DNA of 55,124 nucleotides, taken from the IMG/VR virus record IMGVR_UViG_3300021138_000034, positions 1-55,124 of that record; one strand, written 5' to 3'. Below are positions 2,970-32,988 of this stretch, one piece after another. Position 1 is the stretch's first letter; each line of letters starts with the position of its first letter. The notes beneath the pieces were generated by a model. That model saw only the letters and a list, made by a program, of their open reading frames with translations. It was not told the DNA's origin and did not search any database. A program made the position numbers and the translations under genes. The stretch comes from a virus. Its lineage: Duplodnaviria; Caudoviricetes.

Positions 2970-3012
2970 ACTGTAATTATGAAGTAAGGCTCCCGGATAA
3001 AACTGCTAAAAG

Positions 3013-3083
3013 CTCCCAGACATGGATTCGAACCACAACTAACTGCTCCAGAGGCAGCTGTCCTACCGTTAGACGATCTGGGA
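3013..3083 (-). tRNA. tRNA-Gln(CTG)
   Basis: Cloverleaf TCCCAGA/TCTGGGA acceptor, anticodon loop CT-CTG-GA, GGTTCGAATCC T-arm; no encoded CCA. Confidence 0.9.
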
Positions 3084-3084
3084 A

Positions 3085-3160
3085 TGGAGCGGTTGGCGAG
3101 GCTCGAACTCGTGACCTGTACCTTGGCAAGGTACCGCTCTACCAACTGAGCTACAACCGC
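3085..3160 (-). tRNA. tRNA-Gly(GCC)
   Basis: GCGGTTGTAGCTCAGTTGGTAGAGC...TT-GCC-AA...GTTCGAGCC...CAACCGCTCCA. Confidence 0.95.
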
Positions 3161-3161
3161 T

Positions 3162-3237
3162 TGGCTGGCCCGCCTGGGCTCGAACCAGGGACATTTCGAT
3201 TAACAGTCGAATGCTCTGCCAACTGAGCTACGGGCCA
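3162..3237 (-). tRNA. tRNA-Asn(GTT)
   Basis: TGGCCCGTAGCTCAGTTGGCAGAGC...CT-GTT-AA...GGTTCGAGCC...CGGGCCAGCCA. Confidence 0.95.
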
Positions 3238-3242
3238 TTAGG

Positions 3243-3482
3243 TTACGCCTCTAAAGCGTCCCTTTCGTTAATGAGTCGGTTTAATGTTTGCTCATTAATC
3301 GCCATCTCATTTTCTAAAAACTTGACTTCACTCTCAGACAATGTCTCACGGTTTTCGTCAAGCGCTTTTGTCATTTCGGCAAGCATTCGGGTAGCAATCT
3401 CAACTTGAGTAATCCGACGCTTAAGCATAAAGTCTTTATGCTCTTGTAGACGAGCTGCCTTCTTTTCTTGTGTCTTTGACAT
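3243..3482 (-). CDS. Hypothetical coiled-coil protein (79 aa)
   Basis: ORF track; helical heptad composition. Confidence 0.7.
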   Translation of the reverse strand: MSKTQEKKAARLQEHKDFMLKRRITQVEIATRMLAEMTKALDENRETLSESEVKFLENEMAINEQTLNRLINERDALEA

Positions 3483-3486
3483 GTCG

Positions 3487-3732
3487 TTATGATCCCATCA
3501 AATAACCGATTAATTGTTGCTTAAAGTGCTCTCTACCACGACTAAATGCGGCTTCGGTATCTGCTTTTACTTCTGGAGTAAGTTGCAACAATTCATACTT
3601 TTTTCTATATTCTCGGGCTTGGGTTTCCCAATGCTCACGAGCTTGTCTAGATACTTCAAGCGCGCTTTCTAGATCAGCAATCATCTCTAGATTTTTGCGA
3701 TAACGTTTGCGGAGTACAAGGGGTAGATTCAT
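3487..3732 (-). CDS. Hypothetical coiled-coil protein (81 aa), leaderless
   Basis: ORF track; start moved to ATG 3732 because TATAGT lies 6 nt upstream. Confidence 0.7.
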   Translation of the reverse strand: MNLPLVLRKRYRKNLEMIADLESALEVSRQAREHWETQAREYRKKYELLQLTPEVKADTEAAFSRGREHFKQQLIGYLMGS

Positions 3733-3767
3733 ACGAGAACTATACACACCCCGGTATTTTAAACAAG

Positions 3768-3840
3768 TGCTCCTCGTAGGATTTGAACCTACACTGGCCA
3801 GTTCCTAAAACTGGTGCCTCTACCGTTGGGCTAGAGAAGC
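3768..3840 (-). tRNA. tRNA-Leu(TAG), short variable arm
   Basis: GCTTCTC/GAGGAGC acceptor, CCAGT-TTTAGGA-ACTGG anticodon arm, GTAGGTTCAAATCCTAC T-arm. Confidence 0.9.
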
Positions 3841-3917
3841 TGGTTGCGGGAGTGGGATTTGAACCCACGACCTAGAGCTTATGAGGCTCCCGAGCTTCCG
3901 AGCTGCTCTATCCCGCA
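3841..3917 (-). tRNA. tRNA-Met(CAT), initiator-like body
   Basis: TGCGGGATAGAGCAGCTCGGAAGCTCG...CT-CAT-AA...GGTTCAAATCC...TCCCGCAACCA. Confidence 0.9.
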
Positions 3918-3979
3918 ATAAGTGACCTCCCTGGTGCGCTTTGAGTAGAGGCGTGGGAGGTGCTGTAAGATAAGGATAG

Positions 3980-4050
3980 CACCGTCTCTAGGAGTCGAAC
4001 CCAGGCTAGTGAGGTTGGAGCTCACTGTGCTACCGTAACACTTAGACGAT
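3980..4050 (-). tRNA. tRNA-Trp(CCA)
   Basis: ATCGTCT/AGACGGT acceptor, GTGAG-CTCCAAC-CTCAC anticodon arm, GGGTTCGACTCC T-arm; A at position 8. Confidence 0.85.
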
Positions 4051-4051
4051 A

Positions 4052-4215
4052 AGTATCAACCGCGCCATCCGTTTTTACGGCGAATATGACCGTTGACTCT
4101 GTTCCCTAGATGATCGCTAGTAGGGCGTTTTCGACGACGCTTATCTACCACCACGCCACCCTTGTTGGATTCGGGACAGTTGTACTCAACGAGAGGTCGA
4201 AGTCTAGTTGAGCCC
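4052..4215 (-). ncRNA. Candidate structured ncRNA between tRNA-Thr and tRNA-Trp
   Basis: 165 nt ORF-free spacer with several stems (GCTCAAC/GTTGAGT, GCGT/ACGC, CCCTA/TAGGG, TCAAC/GTTGA enclosing CCGT-AAAA-ACGG). Confidence 0.45.
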
Positions 4216-4217
4216 TG

Positions 4218-4289
4218 AGCCCCCTATCTGATTTGAACAGATGACCGCCCGCTTACAAGGCGGGTGCTCTACCACTGAGCTAAGGAGGC
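4218..4289 (-). tRNA. tRNA-Thr(TGT)
   Basis: GCCTCCTTAGCTCAGTGGTAGAGC...CCCGC-CTTGTAA-GCGGG...GTTCAAATC...AGGGGGCT. Confidence 0.95.
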
Positions 4290-6446: not shown

Positions 6447-9400
6447 CCGTTCCTCCTCCTGAAACGTGCAATCTGGCCAGCCACAAATGTGATGACCAAA
6501 ATCTTTTTAGCTTTTTTACGAGTAATGGGAGACATATCGTTTCCGATGTTGGCCATCGCAACAAAAGCTTGATTCACAGCTTGTACGCCAGGCACAGACG
6601 CTAAAGCTCCAGTAACCGGTGTGAGTGCTACTGGTACAGCGATGTCGGGTGCGTTAAAGGTTGTTCCGCCGGGTTGTCCAATAAAAGTGGCTGAAGTGGT
6701 GATAGCGTCGGGCGGAATAGGTAGACCAGAACCAGGTGGCGGAGCTGGAGGCGTTAATTTGCCGTCTTCTCCTACAACCTGAGGTGCAGATTTAGTACCA
6801 AAGAATTGTATGCCACCATTCTCTACTCCCGCTTGGTCAACCTGTACGTGAGGTACAAGGACGCTAGCTGGCGCTTCTTTTGGTGTAGTATCCGATAAAG
6901 AATTTGGGCTATCTTGAATTAGCCCAGGAGCAGGAGCTTCTGATGGTATTGATGGTGATGGGGCTGGGTCTGGCTGTGGCTGGACTGGCGGCGTGGAAGG
7001 AGGCACGGGTGCAGGACTTGGAGTCACTTGCGTGGTTGATCCTTGGTCTGACGGTGCCGATGGCGTTGTTGGTGTTTGTTGTTGGTCTGATTGGGAAGGG
7101 GAAGTAGATGGATCAGGAGCGCCTTGAGCATTTGAAGAAGTTGAGGGATCAGGCGAAGGAACAGCTGGATCTGGCGTTGGCGCAGGGGCCGGCTGCGGAT
7201 CCGAAGGTTGAGGTTGAGGCTGAGGCTGCGCTTCGTCAGTTCCTGAAGGAGATGCTGCAGGAGCCTGAGGTTCGCTCGGACTTGCAGGAGAAGGTAAAGC
7301 AGATGTCTGAGAATCAGAAGGCGACGGAGTAGATGCGGAAGAAGATTGCGATTGCTGTGCTTGGGCTTGCTGCGCTGCTAGGGCTGCTGCAGCTTGTGCA
7401 GCGGCTGCAGCATCGGCAGCGGCTTTAGCAGCAGCATCTTGCTGAGCCTTTAAGTCAATAGCAGCTACAACAGCATCTGTACTGGTCTGTATTGTTTGAA
7501 CCGCCGTTGCAGCAGTGGCTGTAGCGGTGTCCACCAAAGCCGAAGCTACGCTGATTTGCGAAACTAGCGTTGTTTGAATTGAATTAACTGTAGATGTGGC
7601 TTGAGAAGCCGCATCTCTAGCAGATTGTAGGTCTGCTTTAGCAGAATCCAAATCAGATTGAGCTTGTGCTTGAGTTGCTTGTGCAGACTGAACAGCGGCA
7701 TTGGCTGCATCTGAAGCCGCCTGAAGTTGAGTCAAAGTAGCTTGGTCTGTTGTCAAGTTTGTTTGAGCATCCGCTAATGCTTGAGCCGCGTCCGCAGCAG
7801 CTTGTTGAGCGGTTGTTAGGTTTTGCGTATCTGTTGTTAGGTTTTGCTGCAGGACTGTTAGGTTTTGAGTCTGGGTTGTTAGGTTTTGGGTATCAGAACT
7901 TAATACTTGTGTGAGGTTTTGAACTTGAGCTGCGTTTGACCCAACAGTGTTAAATGCAGAAGTTGGGACAGGAACCCAACCATTACCCACGTTCCATTGA
8001 AGCTGTGAAACAGCCCCTCCGCCGTTTTCGTAATACCACGCCAAGATATCCTGAGTTTGCTGTTGAGTGAAGTTCACAGACCCAGCGCCAGAGTAAGTTG
8101 GCCCCTGGTCTCTCCATTGGTTGATGACAAGAATATTATTAATGTAAAGCTTAAAGCCATCATCAGAATATGAACGGAAGTATACGACCTGTGGAGTTGG
8201 CGCAGTGACTGTTCCTGTGTATTGAACAACAACGTGATCAGCGTTTGCCCCCATTACTGACCCGCTACCCCAGTTAGCGTTAATTTGAGAAACGGTTCCC
8301 TGAGTAGCAGGGGTCATAGATGAAGTAGGAAGTGCCGGAGACGACCCGTTACCGGTGTTATAGGCCTTATAAGTAAGCCCTTGTGTAGCGGAATTGTTTG
8401 CTTGAGCTGTTGCCAAAGCGGTTTGGTCAGCGGCTACTGTTGATTGAGCATCGGAGACTACTGGAGTCTGAGCGTCTACAGCCGCTTGGTCAGAAGTAAC
8501 AGTTGCTTGACTAGAGGACACTACAGCGTTTGCTGAATCTGAAGACGATTGAGCAGAAGCTACATTAGTAACGTCCTGCGTTACTACTACGGTTTGGTTA
8601 GTAACGGCCTGAGCTGCTGCATCTGCTGAGGTTTGAGCCGTGACTGTAGCTGCTTGAGCTACGTCTAGAGCTACGGTTTTATCTGCTGCCGCAACCGTGG
8701 CTGAGTCCACAGAGGATTGAGCAACAGACTGAGCGTCTAAAGCAGGCTGTAGGGAATTGGCGGTAGAGGAAGCCGCTGCTATGGCAGCGGTAGCGTCTTG
8801 ATTTGCTTGGTCAGAAGCTTGGACCGCTTGATTAACATAAGTAACAGCATCCTGAACACCGGGAAGGGCTACCACAGCAGCCACAGCCTCTGGATCGTTT
8901 GACCCTATCTTTCCAAAAAGAGTAGTATTTGCGCTATCTATGGCAGACGTTACGGTAGAACCGTCAACAGTAACTTGGCTTGAAAGGGCGTTTAATTGTG
9001 AAACAGCTGATTGGCTATCTATTGGTGGTTGCTGTGGGTCTTGTGTCTGCACGACAGGCGCGACAGGCGGTTGGTTTGATTCTAAAGAGGAAGTCGAAGT
9101 AGATGGAGAAGTGGTCGATTCTGTGGTTCCTGATACCTGTGATGGCGTTGGTTCTACCACTGACGGTACTGGTGTGGGTGTGAATGATGGTGAAAGTTGT
9201 GACCCACTTGTCCCGTCAGTTGTTGAAGATACTGAAGGGCTACTAACAGATGCTTCAAGCGGTTGAGCTACTTGCAGTGTTGACGGGTCTGTTGTCTGTT
9301 GCTGGGTATTTAGCGTATCTTGAGATACGGGCGCAGAAGATTCATCTGCGTGAGCAGGAGACATCGAGAGCAAAGCGCCAGCAGCGCCCGCCCCAAGAAT

Positions 9401-15596: not shown

Positions 15597-15698
15597 TGAC
15601 ACTTCTATACTCATTTGCGTATAGAAGTGTCAATGTATAGAAAAGGTAACCTTTGGGTACCTTTGGGTACCTTTAGCTAATTCCAGCGCGACACGCCG
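15597..15698. promoter_or_regulatory. Divergent control region: perfect 14-bp inverted repeat, three 10-bp-phased direct repeats, CGACACGCCG box
   Basis: TGACACTTCTATAC-N8-GTATAGAAGTGTCA (15597-15632); ACCTTT at 15649/15659/15669; CGACACGCCG 15689-15698. Confidence 0.7.
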
Positions 15699-15925: not shown

Positions 15926-16062
15926 GCTACTGCTTAGCGCCGTATACCTTCAAAAAATTTTGATGCCCCCCGGCTGGGCTACTGTATAAGCCGTTATAGT
16001 CAAATCTTGCGCCGATTACCTGGAGGCCTTTGTAGATTTGTCGACATTTAACCGTGGGGGCT

Positions 16063-16078
16063 TCGAACATCTGTTCGA
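16063..16078. promoter_or_regulatory. LexA (SOS) box upstream of ardC
   Basis: TCGAAC-ATCT-GTTCGA matches the actinobacterial consensus TCGAAC-N4-GTTCGA. Confidence 0.8.
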
Positions 16079-16202
16079 GAGTGAGGGCGCTGGATTGTTA
16101 TCTAATCGTTATAAATCTACGCTCGCGCCTATTCGACACGGTGGGGGCGCTCGTGTACCTTGGACTTATAAGCGCAAAGGTTGCGCAAAGTTAGGGGTAA
16201 CT

Positions 16203-17075
16203 ATGAACCGCAGTGAAATCGAATCTCTAGTGACCAGCATGGTCACGGCACAATTACGCGAGGGGCGCGTCCCATGGCGTAAGACTTGGGCAAGCAAGGT
16301 CGGTCGACCAACCAACCTAGCCACCCGCCACCAGTACACGGGCGTTAATTGGCTCGTACTCTCTATGCAGGATGTCCCATCCCAACTATGGGTCACCTAT
16401 AAGCAAGCCCAAGCCCTAGGCGGTCAAGTCCGCAAGGGTAGCAAGGGTATCCACTGCATCAAGTACGGCACGATTGACACGGGCAAGGTCGACGCAAAGG
16501 GCAAGCCTATCCTCCGCCCATTCTTGAAGGCGTTCACCGTATTTAATGTCTCGCAGTGCGACGGGTTGACCATTCCCGCCGACTTGGTACCAGTCAAGCG
16601 CGAGACTGAGATATTGCCAGCGGTTGAGACTATGCTCGCCAACTATGCCAACCGCCCAACCGTTTACCATGGCGACTACGCAACCCCTCACTATAAGCCA
16701 ACCGAGGACACTATCCATATGCCCGAGGCTGGTCTATTCGATAGCGTCGAGGAGTACGCGACCGCGCTCGCTCATGAGATGACCCACTCGACTGGTCACC
16801 AGTCACGCGAGAATCGCGACATCATGAACCGATTCGGTTGCGAGGGATACGCCAAGGAGGAGCTAGTAGCCGAGATGGGTGCAGCCATGATGATGGTCGA
16901 GTATGGAATCGACATCGACCTCCCTAACACTGCCAGCTATCTCGCCAGCTGGTTGAAGGCTTTGAATGATGACCCAAGCCTCCTAGTTACCGCAAGTGCC
17001 AAGGCTCAGAAGGCAGTCGACCGAATGACTGGTAAGAAGGCAGTCGTCGAGGTCGAGGAGGAGGTGAGCGCCTAA
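16203..17075 (+). CDS. ardC: ArdC-family antirestriction protein (ssDNA-binding domain plus zincin-like domain)
   Basis: QLREGRVPWRKTW, YTGVN, WVTYKQAQALGGQVRKG, VFNVSQCDGL, HEMTHSTGH, YAKEELVAEMGA; start at ATG 16203 after AGGGG RBS. Confidence 0.95.
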   Translation: MNRSEIESLVTSMVTAQLREGRVPWRKTWASKVGRPTNLATRHQYTGVNWLVLSMQDVPSQLWVTYKQAQALGGQVRKGSKGIHCIKYGTIDTGKVDAKGKPILRPFLKAFTVFNVSQCDGLTIPADLVPVKRETEILPAVETMLANYANRPTVYHGDYATPHYKPTEDTIHMPEAGLFDSVEEYATALAHEMTHSTGHQSRENRDIMNRFGCEGYAKEELVAEMGAAMMMVEYGIDIDLPNTASYLASWLKALNDDPSLLVTASAKAQKAVDRMTGKKAVVEVEEEVSA

Positions 17076-17090: not shown

Positions 17091-17110
17091 GCGGGGGAGC
17101 GATCCCCCGC
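17091..17110 (+). terminator. GC hairpin after ardC (no U-tract)
   Basis: GCGGGGGA-GCGA-TCCCCCGC. Confidence 0.6.
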
Positions 17111-17114
17111 GAGA

Positions 17115-17233
17115 TGTTTGTGTTGGTGCCCACCCTCCCAGCATTAAAGGAATGGAATGGAGAGATTATAACGAAATCGTTATAAAACTCTCGGCGTGTC
17201 GCTATTGGTGCTGTCGTAGGTAGGCGGTATTGT
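17115..17233 (+). repeat. Intergenic cassette element copy 1 (with promoter)
   Basis: TGTTTGTGTT, stem GGTGC/GCATT with loop CCACCCTCCCA, GGAAT, GAGAGA, TTATAACGAAATCGTTATAA, CGGCGTGTCG, TGTCGTAG-N8-TATTGT. Confidence 0.9.
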
Positions 17234-17786: not shown

Positions 17787-17818
17787 AGCCCGGCGGGGCT
17801 TCTCTCCTGCCGGGCTTT
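17787..17818 (+). terminator. Intrinsic terminator-like hairpin
   Basis: AGCCCGGCGGGG...CCTGCCGGGCT-TT. Confidence 0.65.
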
Positions 17819-17838
17819 GCTGTGTCCGCGCGAGAAAA

Positions 17839-17958
17839 TGTTTGTGTTGGAAGCCCGCCCACCCAGCTTCAGGAATATCTAGGAGAGAGATTGTTATCAG
17901 ATTGTTATAAATGTTCCTCGGCGTGTCGGTTTGCCTAGTCGGTGGCATGGCATACCAT
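17839..17958 (+). repeat. Intergenic cassette element copy 2
   Basis: Stem GAAGC/GCTTC, loop CCGCCCACCCA; TTGTTATCAGATTGTTATAA; CGGCGTGTCG; AGTCGGTG-N8-TACCAT. Confidence 0.9.
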
Positions 17959-18002
17959 TGAGGCAGATAGCAGACGGCTATCAGTTCGAGAAAGGAACGA
18001 TT

Positions 18003-18569
18003 ATGGGTCTAGATATGTATCTAGAGGCTCGTAAGTTCGTTTCGGGATACGATTTTGCTCCCGAAGCGGATAAGCATTTGTTTAATCAGTTGAGCGAGAT
18101 TAGCCCCGCTGCTCCAAGCGTGGACTCTCCCTCTTTCCAATTAACCGTAAATATCGGTTATTGGCGCAAGGCGAACGCTATTCACGGTTGGTTTGTCCGT
18201 GAAATTGGCGACGGCGTTGATGAGTGCCAAGAAATGTATGTTCGCCGTGAGAAGTTGGCTGAACTGAAGTCTGCTCTCTTATTGGCTCTTGGTGAAAAGC
18301 CAAGCGTTGTTGCTCCTGCCTCTCAGGGTTATTCCATTAACGGCAACCCTGCCGAGGTTATCGCTGAGACTATGGTTCTAGAGGCTCACCGTGCTGAACT
18401 CAATGATGAGAGTGATACCGACCCTCTCCGTCCCGTCGGTGGTTTCTTTTTCGGTGGTACTGAGAAAGATGAGTGGTACTACCGTCAATTAGCGAACACT
18501 CTCGACATTATCGAGAAGGCGCTCGCTCTCCCAAGTACTTGGGACATTTACTATCAGGCGAGTTGGTAA
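18003..18569 (+). CDS. Conserved phage protein (MGLDMYL...YWRKANAIHGWF family)
   Basis: Signature motifs plus GFFFG...Y and YYQASW; GAGAAAGG RBS. Confidence 0.88.
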   Translation: MGLDMYLEARKFVSGYDFAPEADKHLFNQLSEISPAAPSVDSPSFQLTVNIGYWRKANAIHGWFVREIGDGVDECQEMYVRREKLAELKSALLLALGEKPSVVAPASQGYSINGNPAEVIAETMVLEAHRAELNDESDTDPLRPVGGFFFGGTEKDEWYYRQLANTLDIIEKALALPSTWDIYYQASW

Positions 18570-18853: not shown

Positions 18854-18921
18854 GCGATTGGGGTTGGGAGTGATAACCAGTAACGGCGCGAGTAGCCTCG
18901 CGCGACCCCTCGCTCGCAAAA

Positions 18922-19038
18922 TGTTTGTGTTGAGCCCACCCACCCAGCTCAAATAGGAATGGATCGAGAGAGATAACGAAATTGTTATAGAAGTCGCTCG
19001 GCGTGTCGGCTGGAGATGTCGGTGCTGTCGAGTATTGT
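18922..19038 (+). repeat. Intergenic cassette element copy 3
   Basis: Stem TTGAGC/GCTCAA, loop CCACCCACCCA; ATAACGAAATTGTTAT; CGGCGTGTCG; TGTCGGTG-N8-TATTGT. Confidence 0.9.
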
Positions 19039-19094
19039 GTGGCTGTTGGTCAAACGACCAGCCCTGCTGACGGCAGGTTCAGAAAGGAAGTCCT

Positions 19095-19508
19095 ATGGGC
19101 ATAGCCCTTAAAGTTCCCAGAGCCAAAGTTTTGGTGGCTCTCAAAGACAGGCTCGTTCAGATTGAGTCTGACTACAAGCACCAAGCCAAGTATGAGGCTG
19201 ATTTCATCAAGGCTCATAAGAAGTGGCAACAAGATGTAATCAAGTTGGCTACAACCGAAGGCAAAATCCTTCCTACCGAGTGTTCGGTCTATGTCCGAGC
19301 ATACGGCACTAGCAACCAAATCAGCCTTCAGTATGAAGTGAAGAAGGAAGATTTGCCTGAAGAACCGACCCGTGATTGGGAGTCGATTAGCGACTACAAG
19401 TATCGCGAGATGCGTGATGAAATAAGCAACGCTATCCGCGTGATCGAGATGTGCGAAGATGAGGTAATCCCAGCCTCCACTCTCAAACCTTATAGCCACT
19501 ATCTATAA
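19095..19508 (+). CDS. Hypothetical protein (137 aa)
   Basis: ORF track; AGAAAGG RBS. Confidence 0.8.
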   Translation: MGIALKVPRAKVLVALKDRLVQIESDYKHQAKYEADFIKAHKKWQQDVIKLATTEGKILPTECSVYVRAYGTSNQISLQYEVKKEDLPEEPTRDWESISDYKYREMRDEISNAIRVIEMCEDEVIPASTLKPYSHYL

Positions 19509-19552: not shown

Positions 19553-19577
19553 CGCGCCCGCGCGGAACGCGCGGAAT

Positions 19578-19706
19578 TGTTTGTGTTGGAAAGCCCACCC
19601 ACCCTGCTTTCTGGAATACATAGGAGAGAGATAGGGATTTATAACAAAATCGTTATAAAAGACTTACGGCGTGTCGCTATTGCCTGTCGGTCTGGACGTG
19701 TAATGT
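19578..19706 (+). repeat. Intergenic cassette element copy 4
   Basis: Stem GAAAGC/GCTTTC, loop CCACCCACCCT; TTTATAACAAAATCGTTATAAA; CGGCGTGTCG; TGTCGGTC-N8-TAATGT. Confidence 0.9.
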
Positions 19707-19754
19707 CTGCTCTGTCGGGGAAACTCTTCGACTGTTCGAGAAAGGAACAAGCGG

Positions 19755-20249
19755 ATGTCTAAAAAAGACACGCTGAAAATAAAAGAGGCTTGCCTTCTTT
19801 TATTGAGCCTTGCCGATAAGTGGCAAGACGGAAAACCACTAGACCACGAGGAGATTGACCTTCTCGCGTGGGCTATCGCTGAAAATCTACAAGTGCGCGA
19901 TTACGCTATGAGCGCGCTACTTATGGACAAATTCGAGTCCGTAACTCTGACGATTGACTTCTATGACGAACTCGTTTCGCTCGTATCTGACGAATACAAG
20001 CACTCAATTCTCTCTATCCTTGCCATTCTTTGGTATGGCGCTGAGGATGACGAACTATCTGCCCGTAACCTGTCTATGGCTCTAGCCCTAAAGCCTGATT
20101 ATAAACTCGCGTTACTGGTTCAGAGAATCCACTCTGCTAACTGGCCTCACGAGGTTGTGCAAAATATGTTTAACGAACTCCACCCTACGGTGCGCGCCAG
20201 CGTGACCGAGGGCGGAGAGTATGCGGAAATGCTGGTTTCACAGGGCTAA
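19755..20249 (+). CDS. DUF4192-like helical protein
   Basis: LQVRD...W..G....AL...PDYKLA.L pattern of the actinobacterial DUF4192 C-terminus; GAGAAAGG RBS. Confidence 0.7.
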   Translation: MSKKDTLKIKEACLLLLSLADKWQDGKPLDHEEIDLLAWAIAENLQVRDYAMSALLMDKFESVTLTIDFYDELVSLVSDEYKHSILSILAILWYGAEDDELSARNLSMALALKPDYKLALLVQRIHSANWPHEVVQNMFNELHPTVRASVTEGGEYAEMLVSQG

Positions 20250-20297: not shown

Positions 20298-20335
20298 ATT
20301 TGCCCTTGATCGCGCGAACGTGGGTCGCGCGAGAT

Positions 20336-20453
20336 TGTTTGTGTTGGTTGCCCGCCCACCCAGCAACTAGGAATTGAATGGAGAGACATAACGAAATTGT
20401 TATAAATGGGTACCGGCGTGTCGTGACCGGTCGCGGGCCGGATGTGGCAAGAT
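20336..20453 (+). repeat. Intergenic cassette element copy 5
   Basis: Stem TGGTTGC/GCAACTA, loop CCGCCCACCCA; ATAACGAAATTGTTAT; CGGCGTGTCG; weak -10 CAAGAT at the same spacing. Confidence 0.9.
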
Positions 20454-20478
20454 GTGTTTACTCGAGAAAGGAGTTACC

Positions 20479-20833: not shown

Positions 20834-20846
20834 CGATTTTCGGAAT

Positions 20847-20974
20847 TGTTTGTGTTGGCCCTCCCACCCAGCATTTAAGGAATAGGAATAGAGAGAGATA
20901 CCGGCTTTATAACGAAATTGTTATAAACCATGGCCGGCGTGTCGCGATTGATTGTCCGTGGCCTCGTGTAAGTT
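20847..20974 (+). repeat. Intergenic cassette element copy 6
   Basis: Loop CCTCCCACCCA; TTTATAACGAAATTGTTATAAA; CGGCGTGTCG; TGTCCGTG-N8-TAAGTT. Confidence 0.9.
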
Positions 20975-21012
20975 GTGCCTTGCCGGAAAGGTTCCGCGCA
21001 AGAAAGGTAAAC

Positions 21013-21228
21013 ATGTCTAAAGACGAAGACATAAAGACGGAAGAGGTGACGTACCGGTTCATTACCGGCACGTGGTATTCCATCACCATTCCTAAAGAGA
21101 GAGAGGGGCAACCCGGCTACTCTCCTGAAGAGATATACAGCGCTTACTTTAATGAGGGCGCGCCTGATGACGTTAAGGTCTCAGAGGATGAAGTGGACCA
21201 TGTCTGGGAGGATGATTTAAATGCCTAG
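21013..21228 (+). CDS. Small acidic protein
   Basis: AGAAAGG RBS, ATG 21013. Confidence 0.75.
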   Translation: MSKDEDIKTEEVTYRFITGTWYSITIPKEREGQPGYSPEEIYSAYFNEGAPDDVKVSEDEVDHVWEDDLNA

Positions 21229-21694: not shown

Positions 21695-21721
21695 ATTGGA
21701 GTTTGCCTACACCCACCAAAA

Positions 21722-21862
21722 GTTTGTGTTGAAGCCCTCCCACCCAGCTTCTTATGGAATATATATAAGAGAGACGATATCGAACACGTGTTCGCCGAAC
21801 GTTTGTTCGAGAGACACGCCGGTGGCCCGGGTAGTTGACTCTGCAGCTGCCGGTGGTAAGTT
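21722..21862 (+). repeat. Intergenic cassette element copy 7 (variant with tandem SOS boxes and sigma-A promoter)
   Basis: Stem GAAGC/GCTTC, loop CCTCCCACCCA; palindrome replaced by CGAAC-N4-GTTCG x2; inverted GACACGCCG; TTGACT-N16-TAAGTT. Confidence 0.85.
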
Positions 21863-21903
21863 ACTTCTTGGCGGGACGGCCGCCACGTCGAACGTTTGTT
21901 CGA
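21780..21903. promoter_or_regulatory. Three LexA (SOS) boxes
   Basis: TCGAACACGTGTTCGC 21780-21795, CCGAACGTTTGTTCGA 21795-21810, TCGAACGTTTGTTCGA 21888-21903. Confidence 0.85.
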
Positions 21904-21922
21904 TGAGAGAGAAAGAGAAACA

Positions 21923-22456
21923 ATGACTACACAATTGAGAGAGATGAGAGAGATAGAGGTAGGCAATAGCTGCAGCTGCACCTACTGCCCTAACTGTTCT
22001 CTAGGTTCATCCGGCAATGAAGTATGCGATGAATGCCAACAACCGGTTCAGTACTCCAATGAATGCTTCGACTGCCAACCGTTTGACTGGGCCGAGGAAG
22101 AATTCGATGCTTGGGTCGATCGAGTCGGAGCTAAGCGCCTGCGTATTGATGGCCGTGCCATGGGTTGGCAGCGCCGATCCGGATACGCATACTGCGATCC
22201 AACCTGGAAGAGTTTCCTGGACCGGGTTACCTTCAATGGTGACTGGACCCTTAAGCTCAAGTTCGATGGCGATAGCTTCACCTTCAACCGGTATGGCCAC
22301 GATGAGCCCACTGGAGCTCACTTCGAAGTCTCTGTACACTTCTTCCTCCGGGACACTATGACCTTGGATCAAGCTGTCGAACACGAGATAGTCGACGAGT
22401 ATGGATGCCATATCAGCTGTGGCGAGTACTTCTATGATTGCGAGTGCAGCTCATGA
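21923..22456 (+). CDS. Cys-rich acidic protein (MGWQRRSG / HDEPTG motifs)
   Basis: ORF track; ATG 21923; several CxxC pairs. Confidence 0.8.
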   Translation: MTTQLREMREIEVGNSCSCTYCPNCSLGSSGNEVCDECQQPVQYSNECFDCQPFDWAEEEFDAWVDRVGAKRLRIDGRAMGWQRRSGYAYCDPTWKSFLDRVTFNGDWTLKLKFDGDSFTFNRYGHDEPTGAHFEVSVHFFLRDTMTLDQAVEHEIVDEYGCHISCGEYFYDCECSS

Positions 22457-22575
22457 GCGCTGGAGAGGCCTTACTCAGAGATCCCATCAATACCCGGCTT
22501 GAATGTAAGCTTTGCGGGCGCCTAGTAACCGGCGCTCGGGAAGCTATCGAGCATGAAGAGACTCATACTGCTTGA
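22453..22575 (+). CDS. 40-aa protein with classical C2H2 zinc-finger spacing
   Basis: CKLC-x12-HEETH; ATGA overlap with upstream gene. Confidence 0.65.
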   Translation: MSAGEALLRDPINTRLECKLCGRLVTGAREAIEHEETHTA

Positions 22576-22600
22576 CAAGCATCCTGATTAGTATTAATGT
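22572..22600 (+). promoter_or_regulatory. Consensus sigma-A promoter driving a non-coding region
   Basis: TTGACA-N17-TAATGT. Confidence 0.75.
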
Positions 22601-22604
22601 CTGT

Positions 22605-22701
22605 ACCGCTGGAGCGTCTTAACCTTTCTCAGCTCCAGCGGTCAGAGGCAGTAACCGTCATTACCGCCTCCGGTCTGGCAGCGAGACACCTTGCTCGCTG
22701 C
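22605..22701 (+). ncRNA. Candidate three-hairpin small RNA with anti-Shine-Dalgarno loop
   Basis: ACCGCTGGAGC/GCTCCAGCGGT around GTCTTAACCTTTCTCA; GAGGCAGTAA/TTACCGCCTC; GCAGCGAG/CTCGCTGC; immediately downstream of a consensus promoter. Confidence 0.6.
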
Positions 22702-22706
22702 AAGAT

Positions 22707-22783
22707 TGTTTGTGTTGACCCTCCCACCCCTTATCCCTTCGGGATAGGGTGATGGAGAGAGAGAAAGTCAAGGCGACACGCCG
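22707..22783 (+). repeat. Intergenic cassette element copy 8 (upstream module, degenerate)
   Basis: TGTTTGTGTTG, CCTCCCACCCC, GGAGAGAGAGA, inverted CGACACGCCG. Confidence 0.8.
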
Positions 22784-23009
22784 GAAGAGGAGGCAGCAGG
22801 TTCACGATCACTAAGTGATAGCAGTCACAGAGTGACTGGCAGGCTCTAAGAGCCAGTCAGTTAGGCTACTGCTCAGATAGTGAGACGGTGAGTCGGCTGT
22901 ACCCCCAGATTTACAGGACCTCCGGTCCAACTCCTATCTGATAACTCCGTGGAGAGAGATAGGAGAGAGAGAGACACTCTCAGCTATCCTCCTGGAATTG
23001 TCGACATTT

Positions 23010-23025
23010 TGTTCCACGTGAAACA
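23010..23025. promoter_or_regulatory. parS centromere site
   Basis: TGTTCCACGTGAAACA matches the parS consensus TGTTNCACGTGAAACA. Confidence 0.8.
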
Positions 23026-23094
23026 TTTATAACGAAATTGTTATCAAACCCCACCGGCGTGTCGTGAATAAATGTCGGTGCCTACTGGTTAAAT
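23026..23094 (+). repeat. Downstream (promoter) module of the cassette element
   Basis: TTTATAACGAAATTGTTAT; CGGCGTGTCG; TGTCGGTG-N8-TTAAAT. Confidence 0.85.
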
Positions 23095-23140
23095 GCTCTC
23101 ATGGCAACTAGGCCATAACACAGACGAGAAAGGTCTGGCG

Positions 23141-23467
23141 ATGAGCACAATTAACTATCACAAGGAAAAGTCCGAAGCTGCTGAAGCTAAGGTGAATGCT
23201 GCATGGATCAAGCTCCAAGAGTACTTCCGGGACAAGGGTGGCCTCACTGAGGAGCTAATCAAGATTTGGGTGGAAGGCACCATGGAGTCCCAGTGGCAGG
23301 GATGGCATGACTATGGCCTGATTCAGGCTAAGGAGTCTGCTGGCTGGTCCCGTCGTGACTGCCTAATCTGTGACGAGACTACTGAGCATGACTCTAATAA
23401 CCTATGCACTGTATGTCATTCATGCTCAAATTGTAAGGCGCCGGTTGGTAAGGGGGCATCGGCATGA
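23141..23467 (+). CDS. Hypothetical protein with C-terminal Zn-binding Cys cluster
   Basis: GAGAAAGG RBS, ATG 23141; three CxxC. Confidence 0.75.
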   Translation: MSTINYHKEKSEAAEAKVNAAWIKLQEYFRDKGGLTEELIKIWVEGTMESQWQGWHDYGLIQAKESAGWSRRDCLICDETTEHDSNNLCTVCHSCSNCKAPVGKGASA

Positions 23468-23658
23468 GCGTCTCACTCTATATACGGTCATGGAACCAAC
23501 AGAGCCATCTACACGCCACCGGTTGTGGGTGCAAGATTACTGACCGCTATGAGCATGTACAGGATTTCCCTACCTATGACGATTCCGTCAAGGTTTGGGA
23601 GGTAAATAACGAGCTAGGAACTATCCATCACGTATGCCTAGAGGAGGCAAAGCGATGA
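23464..23658 (+). CDS. Small His/Cys protein (HLHA.GC)
   Basis: ATGA overlaps. Confidence 0.7.
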   Translation: MSVSLYIRSWNQQSHLHATGCGCKITDRYEHVQDFPTYDDSVKVWEVNNELGTIHHVCLEEAKR

Positions 23659-23840: not shown

Positions 23841-23968
23841 AAGACCCTGAGTGGATGAGTGGCGACACGCCGTACTTCTGTGATGATTGCGGAATGCGCC
23901 ATGATGAAGAAGAATGTGCACCGGAAGAGGACCCTGACCGTCTACATGACGAGATGATGGAGGAATGA
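23837..23968 (+). CDS. Tiny acidic protein (C..CG..H...C, DPDRLHDE)
   Basis: GTGA overlap after GGAGG; manual translation. Confidence 0.6.
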   Translation: MKDPEWMSGDTPYFCDDCGMRHDEEECAPEEDPDRLHDEMMEE

Positions 23969-25033: not shown

Positions 25034-25245
25034 GCGAAGCAGATTACGACGCATACGCTAACAACGATGACTTTACTATTGTGCAGTCTCCTATGGACTA
25101 TAAGAAAATGCACATTGAAACCTTGGACCGACTGGTTGACCTTGCCGTTGCTCAGTACTCGAAGGACATTGAACTACTAAACCTAATCCGTACAGCTCGT
25201 GACTACGCCCTTTATCTTGAAGATAACCGGCGCATGATCGTATAA
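25030..25245 (+). CDS. Small hypothetical protein
   Basis: GTGA overlap start. Confidence 0.65.
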   Translation: MSEADYDAYANNDDFTIVQSPMDYKKMHIETLDRLVDLAVAQYSKDIELLNLIRTARDYALYLEDNRRMIV

Positions 25246-25256
25246 GAAAGGAAATC

Positions 25257-25496
25257 ATGTCAGATCAAAACATTGAGGATGCAAACGTAGTCTCAGCACC
25301 TGAAGTCAAGCACACCACCATGGTGTACATGATTGATGGCAAGAGCTTCGAAACTAGCATTCCTGCTCAAAGCTTGGTACAACACATTGCGTATAACAAC
25401 CCACGTGTTGTATCGCTCAACCGCCCAACCGGTGGCGATGTTCATCTTGTAGCTGAAAACATTAACTACATTGAGGATGTCATCGAAGAGCAGTAA
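25257..25496 (+). CDS. Small hypothetical protein
   Basis: AGAAAGG RBS. Confidence 0.75.
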   Translation: MSDQNIEDANVVSAPEVKHTTMVYMIDGKSFETSIPAQSLVQHIAYNNPRVVSLNRPTGGDVHLVAENINYIEDVIEEQ

Positions 25497-27859: not shown

Positions 27860-29308
27860 CTAGTCTTCGGTCAAATCTTTCAAAATGCGAGTAGTCTCAA
27901 CCTCATCTATAGGTTTTGGAAGCTCATTTAATACCTGAGCACGGTCTCCAAACATCCTCGTCATCCATCCAGCTCCGGCATTTTTAGCCTCAACAGTCAT
28001 CTTAATGCTGCTGCTTCCGGACAACATATCGTTGATTTTTTGCGTCAGATCAATAAGGCGATCGAGCTCTTTTGATACGTTTGGATCAGGGTATCCACCA
28101 TTGACTTGTTCGGTAAAAGCAGCGAAAGCAACTCGGTTTGACTGCAATTCTAATATCGCAGTCATGTATGCCTGAAGCTGTTCACGGGTCTTTAATTCAA
28201 TTGGAAAACTGTAAGCACAGGAGTTGTTTGCCTTAAAAGCTGGGCAATTGGCGGCGATAAAACAGGTGTTGCATTGACGGACGCTGGCGCCAGAGCTCTC
28301 GACGACAGGCACGTCTTTGATGGTGCCATCTGGGTCAAAAACCTTCTGAGTGGACATGTTAAAAACCGGCAAAACCGTCATTTCTGACGGGTCTCGGTCC
28401 ATTAATTTTCCTACCTCTAATGGCTTGTTATCAGGTACGACGAGGTCTTTTTCCGCGTAATCATCACTCGCTGGGTCTTCGAAGTTATCATATAAGTTCG
28501 CCATTTTGCTCAATTTCTCCTCAAGTCGTTGGAATGACCAGATGGCCAACTTGCAATTTTCTTTTTCGTCGTCTCCTACAATCTTATCGAAATCTAAGCC
28601 GATAGATTCGTAGATGGCCTTGTAGCGAGGACGAGCTTGAGCCTTCATAGACTTTGGATAACGAGCCAGCTTTACCCCATCCCATACGATGGTCTCACCG
28701 TGGGTCATAGGGGATATCCAAGCAAGGCTGTGTGCGGTCTCTACAGGCACCTGTCGCAGGTTATCTGGACGAGCGCAGGCGATGGCATGAAACCTTGTGC
28801 CTGACTGCGTTGTCAGGCTTCTGGTTACCCCAGCCAGCCAGGTGAATTCTTCGATACTTTCACCGGTCAACCCGATGTCTAGATAAGTATCGGCTAGGCG
28901 CCTAAGCTCGCCTTGACCTAAGTTTGGATTCCAGATCGGAAGGAACTTACCGGGTGGGCATTGAGCCCAACAGGTCTTCCTCTGTTCTTCGATGAAATCC
29001 GGGCTAAGTAGTGGGTGAGTCATTTCCGAAAACATAGCGATTCGGTCTATGTTGTCAGCTATAAACTCTTCATACTCAGCAGCTAGGCTTTCAAACTCCA
29101 GCCTATCTAGCGCTATGTTACGGGGAACGCCGGCATGGACATACAACAAAGTGTCTTCTGGAAAGTAATTTTTAAGTAAATACTTTTTGGTTTTGGGCAG
29201 CCCACGCTGCTTCAATCGCCAGTAGCTGATGCTCATATGCTTGGCATTCATAGATTCCAAAATTAGGCGATTTGATGGAACTTCTGAGCCCATAAATACT
29301 ATGTTCAA
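27860..29308 (-). CDS. Divergent tRNA-guanine-transglycosylase/DpdA-like barrel protein with C-terminal Cys cluster
   Basis: Order of motifs SYW, YEEFI, FLPIW, RFHAI, TAHSLAW...HG resembles phage TGT-like proteins; CNTC...CP...C. Confidence 0.5.
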   Translation of the reverse strand: MNIVFMGSEVPSNRLILESMNAKHMSISYWRLKQRGLPKTKKYLLKNYFPEDTLLYVHAGVPRNIALDRLEFESLAAEYEEFIADNIDRIAMFSEMTHPLLSPDFIEEQRKTCWAQCPPGKFLPIWNPNLGQGELRRLADTYLDIGLTGESIEEFTWLAGVTRSLTTQSGTRFHAIACARPDNLRQVPVETAHSLAWISPMTHGETIVWDGVKLARYPKSMKAQARPRYKAIYESIGLDFDKIVGDDEKENCKLAIWSFQRLEEKLSKMANLYDNFEDPASDDYAEKDLVVPDNKPLEVGKLMDRDPSEMTVLPVFNMSTQKVFDPDGTIKDVPVVESSGASVRQCNTCFIAANCPAFKANNSCAYSFPIELKTREQLQAYMTAILELQSNRVAFAAFTEQVNGGYPDPNVSKELDRLIDLTQKINDMLSGSSSIKMTVEAKNAGAGWMTRMFGDRAQVLNELPKPIDEVETTRILKDLTED

Positions 29309-32635: not shown

Positions 32636-32988
32636 ACTGAGTCTCCTAACGCGTTTCGACTGCTGGATTCCTGGGTATTTGGGGTCTGGCTATAGTCAGA
32701 CTCATTACGCTGAGGCTTTGGTGAGCCCGGATTCCTTAGCTCAATGATATCTCGTATGCCGTACTCCTCCGTGCTGTACCCGTATCTATCCGGAAATAAC
32801 TGGATTTGAGGAAGGTTAGGGCGTACATATTCTTGCAATTCTGGGCCAGTCATCAGGATGCTAGCGGTCGCTTGACCGATCAACTTTTGCTGATTGGTTG
32901 AATAAGGGCCAACATACTCCTGAGGAGGAATTGGCTGAGTAGTCCAAGGACGATGGTTGTAAACGCCATCTGCAAATTGACCGGCCAC
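32632..32988 (-). CDS. Hypothetical protein (118 aa)
   Basis: ORF track. Confidence 0.7.
   Translation of the reverse strand: MAGQFADGVYNHRPWTTQPIPPQEYVGPYSTNQQKLIGQATASILMTGPELQEYVRPNLPQIQLFPDRYGYSTEEYGIRDIIELRNPGSPKPQRNESDYSQTPNTQESSSRNALGDSV

Follow-up and report, generated by a model that had tools for sequence, protein, structure and literature searches.

A candidate antisense hairpin for cassette ribosome-binding sites in the 3′ untranslated region of an operon of an uncultured phage

Several base-pairing small RNAs (sRNAs), such as RsaE/RoxS, RNAIII and the actinobacterial 6C RNA, carry pyrimidine-rich loops that occlude Shine-Dalgarno (SD) sequences; 6C is built of two hairpins, each with at least six C residues in its loop. 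In phages P1 and P7, the c4 antisense RNA of the immI operon belongs to the same transcription unit as its targets, and its loops pair with sequences that contain the ribosome-binding site (RBS) and block the translation of phage genes. The sRNA s-SodF of Streptomyces derives from a 3′ untranslated region (3′ UTR). Another 3′-UTR-derived sRNA, CisR, is reported to act on the cep mRNA of CTX-phi (PMC13250501), and the PeSLs of T4-like phages are described as composite terminator/promoter motifs (PMC4122927; PMC2839356). Here, we describe a hairpin, H1, in IMGVR_UViG_3300021138_000034, the whole 55,124-bp record of an uncultured phage (the window; G+C about 47%). H1 lies at the end of an operon within an island of + strand gene cassettes at about 16.0-25.6 kb, and we tentatively propose that it is a 3′-UTR antisense hairpin that occludes the RBSs of these cassettes.

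In the mechanism that we have in mind, H1 would be a conserved hairpin at the 3′ untranslated end of a + strand operon of two genes (21923-22456 and 22453-22575). This operon is most likely closed by a further hairpin, H3, and its U-rich tail, which would form the terminator part of a repeated terminator/promoter boundary between cassettes. The 11-bp stem would present a 16-nt loop, the 3′ half of which, ACCUUUCUC, is antisense to an extended SD context, GAGAAAGG(U/A), that appears to be used by the first gene of most island cassettes and by that of H1's own operon. With the + strand as the presumed active RNA, the loop would pair with these sites, either in trans or inside read-through transcripts, in competition with the tail of the 16S rRNA, and translation of the cassette mRNAs would be initiated less often. 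No effect on - strand genes would be expected, because AGAAAGG, like GAAAGGA, never occurs on the - strand outside the island.

The structure of H1 is unusual for its surroundings. As the initial annotation of this DNA had recognised, its stem is a perfect one of 11 bp, and folding confirmed that three hairpins (H1-H3, 22605-22708) follow a promoter-like site (Table 1). On the + strand, the region 22600-22760, which includes all three, folds to -76.5 kcal/mol (z = -6.8), a value equalled by none of 200 shuffled sequences, and H1 is the sole perfect stem of at least 11 bp with a loop longer than 14 nt in the island. Judged by its sequence, H1 is not an intrinsic terminator, because no U-run follows it (GGTCAGAGGC is directly 3′ of the stem); moreover, its 16-nt loop is not a short one and the terminator scan did not list it. 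Rfam searches matched only the seven tRNA genes in the whole window, and in 22400-23200, at E values up to 10, they returned only noise (mir-320, E 0.64; a retroviral encapsidation signal, E 5.8).

H1-H3 start 30 nt past the stop codon of a 40-aa open reading frame (ORF), which is coupled through an ATGA overlap to the upstream gene 21923-22456. With its GC-rich stem and U-rich tract, H3 is a predicted intrinsic terminator, and the terminator scan lists 22678-22701 together with AAGATTGTTT, as well as the equivalent hairpins of other cassettes. By sequence, H3 with its tail supplies the terminator hairpin in one copy of an element repeated at the cassette boundaries, so that H1-H3 would belong to the 3′ UTR of the operon ending at 22575. 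The related loci L174 and L163 have no equivalent of H2 and pass straight from an H1-like hairpin to a GC hairpin. For the upstream gene (21923-22453) one relative was found, in L296 (41% amino acid identity), where coding genes and no hairpin follow; for the downstream gene (23141-23464) no relatives were found.

The loop of H1 is complementary to a set of RBSs in the island. AGAAAGG is found there on the + strand at 17989, 19081, 19739, 20465, 21001, 23127 and 25245, and the (G)AGAAAGG sites that the initial annotation had listed, with the 9-nt match at 23126, are all present. Over the whole window the word is not enriched (10 found, 10.4 expected); its distribution is uneven, with seven of the nine + strand copies in the island and a sole - strand copy, which is the complement of the H1 loop itself. 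GAAAGGA has five of its six + strand copies in the island. Used as an RBS, (G)AGAAAGG is seen nowhere but in the + strand island. The complement of the loop contains GAGAAAGG, which has five copies on the + strand, four of them at RBS distance from the starts of ORFs of at least 50 aa, and AGAAAGGT is located at an RBS in two of its three copies. Among the 8-mers located at RBSs on the + strand of the window, AGAAAGGA (five), GAGAAAGG, CGAGAAAG and GAAAGGAA (four each) are the most frequent. Complementarity to the loop covers 8-9 nt at five island RBSs and 7 nt at 19081, 21909 and 25245; since the GAGAAAG at 21909-21915 belongs to H1's own operon, it could be a cis target. At the seven sites for which energies were computed, 21909 not among them, the predicted duplexes with the loop (-8.8 to -16.4 kcal/mol) equal in stability those that the 16S-tail motif forms at the same sites (-8.1 to -13.1 kcal/mol). 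H1 also ranks first of 2281 hairpins from the window and 104 related loci for loop-complementary 8-mers just 5′ of start codons (6-7, the runner-up having 4), in a screen with a loose RBS definition and a high background; the complement gave at least one match in 354 hairpins, as against 293 when loops were reversed and 343 when they were taken in the same sense. In the predicted folds, the loop of H1 is unpaired and complementary to the putative target RBSs, as an accessible seed would be. Anti-RBS candidates in L167 and L160 were rejected, as they are situated inside coding sequence of unrelated AT-rich contigs. Elsewhere in the window, TGAGGAAGGTTAGGGC at 32806-32821 (+) can pair with 16 of the 16 loop bases (three G-U pairs, -24.1 kcal/mol); this stretch runs antisense to a gene on the - strand, forms no part of a hairpin and was set aside as a target, the match being unexplained or probably due to chance.

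When related phages were searched structurally for hairpins with CCTTTCT in the loop, homologues of H1 emerged on the strand that has the sense of the island. Those of L174 and L189 come after the stop codon of a 45-aa C4 zinc-ribbon gene, and in L163 only 60 nt precede the hairpin, the contig ending before any gene could show. In all three, a GC hairpin and then the ATTGTTGAGTTGG element (ATTGTT..GTTGG) are located 3′ of the H1-like hairpin, as in the window. The loop is 16 nt long in the window, L174, L189 and L163, with CCUUUCU at loop positions 8-14 throughout. The relatives' loops match that of the window at 10-11 of 16 positions, and their stems differ at most positions and still pair. 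Conservation of the stems without the loop had been named beforehand as a pattern that would speak against a pairing function; the reverse was seen, with the loop kept and the stems changing.

The 3′ flank of the loop co-varies with the RBS flank of each phage in the sequences compared. In the window, the flank is CUC and the site GAGAAAGG; in L174, the flank is CUGU and the site ACAGAAAG, which is the commonest RBS-located 8-mer of that locus (six copies, four of them strict), the loop ending in CUUUCUGU. In L163, ACAGAAAGG is found at an RBS. Tested against their own phage, the loops of the window and L174 have four RBS-located matches each; exchanged, the window loop has none in L174 and the L174 loop has one in the window. 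The suggestion that the loop mimics the anti-SD tail of 16S rRNA applies to the 7 nt CCUUUCU, but not to the co-varying flanks, which lie beyond the 16S tail motif; this motif, as quoted in the initial annotation, presumably ends before those positions. A search with 22300-23200 gave no match in the GenBank phage collection. The pattern CCTTTCT-N8-16-GCCCCCAAG occurs in 74 stretches of IMG/VR, where the only true hairpins are copies identical to that of L174 (L223, the L189 contig; L290, the L174 contig; and two further contigs, L243 and L275), with no new variants among these stretches. A 14-mer of the loop has at least 118 IMG/VR stretches, none of those listed with a flanking stem longer than 7 bp, and these were rejected as chance matches.

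Several points weigh against the proposal that H1 acts as an antisense hairpin. On the - strand, the region 22600-22760 gives a fold that is no less stable (-83.0 kcal/mol, z = -7.6), and H2 pairs better there, gaining G-U pairs. That the H1 loop is at least 95% unpaired in the predicted folds is a consequence of the strong stem, in a nested folding that is blind to pseudoknots. The RBS words are part of paralogous 5′ UTRs (family D8), so that their uniformity within one phage may reflect descent. The co-variation rests on three distinct hairpin sequences and, since L174 and L163 are related, effectively on two lineages; with hairpins already chosen for CCUUUCU, it adds about 1/4 x 1/16, roughly 1/64. 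A model of H1 only (R1) matched just its four training sequences among 99 sources (the window and 98 loci, 1.19 Mb, with L217-L221 left out) and gave no match in five whole related records, the element being sporadic. When 22401-22720 was compared by blastn with the 104 loci (1.22 Mb), two weak matches began at query positions 292-293, and nothing was found over the small ORF, the promoter-like site, H1 and H2 (22401-22691). The hairpin stretch was not found among the RNA runs, all matching contigs being DNA. Finally, a contig of the strain in run X7, which spans 22000-23500 with 52 substitutions and 3 gaps in 1501 nt, shows no change in 22537-22685 and hence leaves H1 and H2 intact, but its divergence is a mosaic (3 changes in the coding stretch 22000-22369 and 17 in 22370-22536), so that this invariance is weak evidence. 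The stem of its H3 is unchanged, all differences falling in the loop (22686 deleted, 22688 A>G, 22691 T>C).

The chief rival explanation, to which we assign a real but minor chance, is that H1-H3 are ordinary tandem terminator or mRNA-stabilising hairpins whose loop matches the RBSs by chance. It would account for the absence of the H1 element from most relatives and for the two other places at which a pair of hairpins precedes ATTGTTTGTGTTG (19515-19553/19558-19574 and 20263-20297/20310-20332); pyrimidine-rich loops are, besides, common, as in CUUCUC at 17787-17816, CCCUCUCU of L174 and CCUCUCUCU of L163. It is more difficult to reconcile with the missing U-run and a loop of a length unusual for a terminator. 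Nor does it readily explain why the length, the register and 10-11 of 16 bases of this loop persist despite the changes of the stem, why the loop flank tracks the RBS word of each phage, or why H1 comes out first for RBS complementarity among all hairpins screened.

The initial annotation had read H1-H3 as an independent trans-acting sRNA, with a possible translational early-to-late switch as its outcome. Such an sRNA, of about 105 nt, would start from TTGACA-N17-TAATGT, end at H3 and imitate the 16S tail. We consider this improbable. The quoted sequence is indeed present: TTGACA (22572-22577) matches the -35 consensus at 6 of 6 positions, the spacer is 17 nt, and TAATGT (22595-22600) retains TAnnnT, though it agrees with TATAAT at only 3 of 6 positions. 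As a promoter, however, the match is at chance level, TTGACA-N16-18-TANNNT occurring once in the window against 1.64 expected and at least once in 80 of 100 shuffles, and the promoter scan did not list 22572-22600. TTGACA overlaps the TGA stop codon of the small ORF 22453-22575, and the -10 hexamer ends only 4 nt before the stem, so that the usual start point would cut into the 5′ arm of H1. In L174, L189 and L163, the homologous hairpins are not preceded by a suitably placed TANNNT hexamer; for this reason, the promoter does not appear to be a conserved part of the element, and a 3′-UTR location is favoured. The terminator-like H3 downstream and the loop-RBS evidence suit the sRNA equally well, and the site is identical in the X7 strain, as are H1 and H2. 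What survives of the trans-acting anti-SD sRNA is the complementarity of the loop to the cassette RBSs; its origin from a promoter of its own is not borne out, the hairpins being placed in an operon 3′ UTR. The site could add an internal start in the window phage, and a 3′-UTR antisense hairpin needs none. The stretch had also been described as free of ORFs. A 51-aa ORF (22597-22752) does overlap the hairpins, but it is probably non-coding and was rejected as a gene, since no SD precedes it and the 1-nt deletion at 22686 shifts its frame in the X7 strain.

Even less probable is a protein-binding hairpin or DNA site, in which a phage protein, with the small zinc-finger or zinc-ribbon protein encoded upstream as one candidate, recognises the loop or the duplex GAGAAAGG in either orientation. 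A 40-aa C2H2-like ORF precedes H1, a 45-aa C4 zinc-ribbon ORF precedes the L174 hairpin, and the island is rich in palindromic operator-like sites, yet the two proteins have no evident similarity (by inspection, no alignment run), the GAGAAAGG words are at SD distance from start codons, and the loop is related to the RBSs by complementarity and not by identity, which is a better fit to RNA pairing than to a shared RNA-binding protein. Very improbable, finally, is an active - strand transcript whose H1 loop would display an SD-like UGAGAAAGGUUAAGAC and draw off the 16S tail as a decoy. In its favour, the fold of the - strand is slightly the better one, H2 gains its G-U pairs there, an inverted CGGCGTGTCG is located at 22783-22774, and a sense-strand hairpin of L179 has AACAGAGAAAGGA as its loop. 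Against it, all island genes are on the + strand, neither inspection by eye nor a two-strand scan found anything promoter-like upstream of the inverted motif, the SD-like loop is not followed by a start codon, and two natural changes keep pairing only in the + sense RNA (22855 A>G in X7, which turns U-A into U-G in the hairpin 22833-22859, and a C-to-U change in the GC hairpin of L163, which gives a U-G pair).

Table 1. Features of the window, with the homologous hairpins of related loci
Feature	Position	Strand	Remarks
H1	22605-22642	+	Perfect 11-bp stem; 16-nt loop 22616-22631, GUCUUAACCUUUCUCA; proposed anti-RBS loop
H2	22645-22670	+	Interrupted hairpin; no counterpart in relatives
H3	22671-22708	+	Inner stem 22678-22685/22694-22701, loop 22686-22693; terminator-like
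U-rich tail	22702-22717	+	AAGATTGTTTGTGTTG; also start of the repeated element
Promoter-like site	22572-22600	+	TTGACA-N17-TAATGT; function doubtful
Small ORF	22453-22575	+	40 aa, C2H2 zinc-finger-like; matched weakly by Pfam zf-C2H2 (E 8.7e-4, short of the curated cut-off)
H1-like hairpin of L174 and L189			ggctggtc-UUUUUCCCCUUUCUGU-gaccagcc
H1-like hairpin of L163			agcaggac-UUCUUGUCCUUUCUGU-gtcctgct
RBS GAGAAAGGT	23126-23134	+	9-nt loop complement; gene ATG 23141; predicted duplex -16.4 kcal/mol
RBS GAGAAAGG	17988-17995	+	Cassette gene at 18003
RBS GAGAAAGG	19738-19745	+	Cassette gene at 19755
RBS GAGAAAGG	20464-20471	+	Cassette gene at GTG 20479
RBS AGAAAGGT	21001-21008	+	Cassette gene at 21013
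RBS GAGAAAG	21909-21915	+	7 nt before ATG 21923; first gene of H1's operon
RBS AGAAAGG	19081-19087	+	Gene at 19095
RBS AGAAAGG	25245-25251	+	Gene at 25257
Composite element, about 110 nt	17106-17210, 17829-17930, 18913-19010, 19568-19680		Before + strand cassettes
Composite element, further copies	20326-20425, 20836-20945, 21712-21830, 22702-22786 with 23026-23080
Composite element, partial copy	near 16093-16116
Variant element copy	22707-22786	+	Hairpin CCTTATCCC-TTC-GGGATAGGG and inverted CGGCGTGTCG
tRNA genes (7)	3012-4289	-	Cluster

The element at the cassette boundaries, of which the island holds eight full copies and one partial copy, is made up of several parts. A variable GC hairpin (in most copies, not at 21722) is followed by (A)ATTGTTTGTGTTG and a short stem around the loop CCCNCCCACCC, then by GGAAT and GAGAGAGAT. 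Next comes, in the majority of copies, the palindrome TTATAAC-N6-GTTATAA with TGnTATAAA inside it, and last are CGGCGTGTCG and a leader with the RBS (G)AGAAAGG. The pattern GTTTGTGTTG-N3-9-CCCNCCCACCC was found in 24 stretches of IMG/VR contigs. A 10-mer of the element has 223 occurrences in 170 distinct contexts in the window and the 104 loci; 71 of these contexts have a C-rich loop, which in 47 is flanked by stems of at least 4 bp of differing sequence. From these features, the composite element may be an undescribed structured regulatory or recombination module. Across the 104 loci, the island is almost without other DNA conservation. The variant copy at 22707-22786 has 87-93% identity in L004, L017, L020, L021 and L003, whose flanks are unrelated, and its part 22707-22751 is also present in many other contigs. 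In run X7, the summed contig depth over the variant is about 180, compared with about 10 beside it, and one contig of X4 has two copies of the variant 1395 nt apart. Palindromes of the GTCAC/GTGAC type follow the variant in the window and in relatives.

Further observations concern single parts of this element. CGGCGTGTCG has seven copies on the + strand, where it stands 7-8 nt after a -10-like TATAAA in the cassettes, and it is inverted on the - strand at 15689-15698, 22774-22783 and 23863-23872, the first of these heading leftward genes near 15.7 kb. In L204 (14868-21850), L208 (13914-21659) and L221, the 10-mer of the element is on the opposite strand relative to the island genes, and their sense strand shows a stop codon, CAACACAAAC, an RBS and an ATG before successive genes. 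Terminator-like hairpins with CU-rich loops (CCCUCUCU at about 18250-18290 on the - strand of L174, CCUCUCUCU at about 8550-8586 on the - strand of L163, and CUUCUC at 17787-17816 in the window) are complementary to GA-rich boxes (GGAGAGAGA, ACAGAAAGAGAGA) of repeated elements and leaders. L179 has a 10-bp hairpin at 21004-21036 (+), within a 5′ leader; its loop is UCCUUUCUCUGUU when read on the reductase strand and the SD-like AACAGAGAAAGGA when read in the sense of the island. Three sets of palindromes were recorded in the island: TCGAAC-N4-GTTCGA (16061-16078, 21793-21810 and 21886-21903), TTATAAC-N6-GTTATAA (17166-17185, 19638-19659, 20906-20927 and 23026-23045), and TCACT-A-AGTGA and GTCAC-AGA-GTGAC (22806-22816 and 22825-22838). 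These operator-like palindromes, of at least three kinds, suggest several sequence-specific regulators. The repeated element is more widespread than H1 and may be the better lead on the organisation and exchange of early genes.

The genes of the window are mainly on the - strand, and the + strand island adjoins a convergent ribonucleotide reductase gene. Ribonucleotide reductase, DNA polymerase and helicases are encoded, together with an ArdA-like anti-restriction gene where the island starts (16038-17075, +) and a gene that resembles queuine tRNA-ribosyltransferase (27860-29308, -). Among the protein matches, the best come from Streptomyces phages (one helicase at about 37-39% identity), a DUF4192 domain is present in a protein of the island, and the source DNA was found in freshwater and lake metagenomes. 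An actinobacterial host is plausible from the protein matches, DUF4192 and the freshwater habitat.

If H1 is a 3′-UTR antisense hairpin, a single short loop of RNA would keep a whole family of mobile early-gene cassettes under control by way of the RBS word that they share, and the system would show how a phage coordinates genes in the face of their continual exchange. It would also mean that the co-evolution of a regulator and its targets can be read directly from the metagenomes of uncultured freshwater phages. The co-variation between loop and RBS amounts to a concrete prediction that is testable without culturing the host. A more far-reaching idea, which we regard as rather unlikely, is that a 'private' extended SD word (GAGAAAGG here, ACAGAAAG in the L174 group) co-evolves with the loop of a 3′-end hairpin, giving a phage-specific translational off-switch for shuffled early genes that maybe also silences related incoming phages. 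Were this so, exclusion between related phages at the level of the RBS might follow. Keyword searches of the literature turned up nothing alike, which does not by itself establish that no such system has been described.

Of the known systems, the PeSLs are comparable to H3, its tail and the downstream context, not to H1. The likeness consists in short conserved stem-loop-plus-promoter units, the promoter being putative in the window, that recur between small variable genes of a plastic region and are shared despite unrelated flanks. The element of the window is, however, unrelated to the PeSLs in sequence and longer (about 110 nt), and among its parts are a C-rich hairpin loop, a GAGAGAGA box, a palindromic operator and CGGCGTGTCG. 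It is repeated and shared, as PeSL-like units are; a role of it in recombination is putative.

In contrast, H1 resembles s-SodF and CisR in having a putative regulatory seed at the 3′ end of an mRNA just before the terminator, with no need for a promoter of its own. It differs from both in that its host and phage are uncultured. H1 differs from c4, which lies upstream of its targets and is processed from the transcript, in its location at the 3′ end of an operon and in the many dispersed cassettes that are its proposed targets; homology between the two is not expected. H1 is not a member of the 6C family, as it has no Rfam match and its loop has no C-run, and the C-rich loops (CCCNCCCACCC) that might invite the comparison belong to the neighbouring repeated element. 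With RsaE/RoxS, RNAIII and 6C no relation in sequence or in Rfam was found; in addition, the loop of H1 is a mixture of U and C (CCUUUCUC) instead of a run of C, H1 is phage-borne, and its proposed targets are the leaders of the phage's own cassettes. What it has in common with these RNAs is a stable hairpin whose C/U-rich loop, predicted to be unpaired, matches by complementarity the purine-rich RBSs in several mRNAs, and on this account H1 would join the known class of base-pairing RNAs that occlude RBSs.

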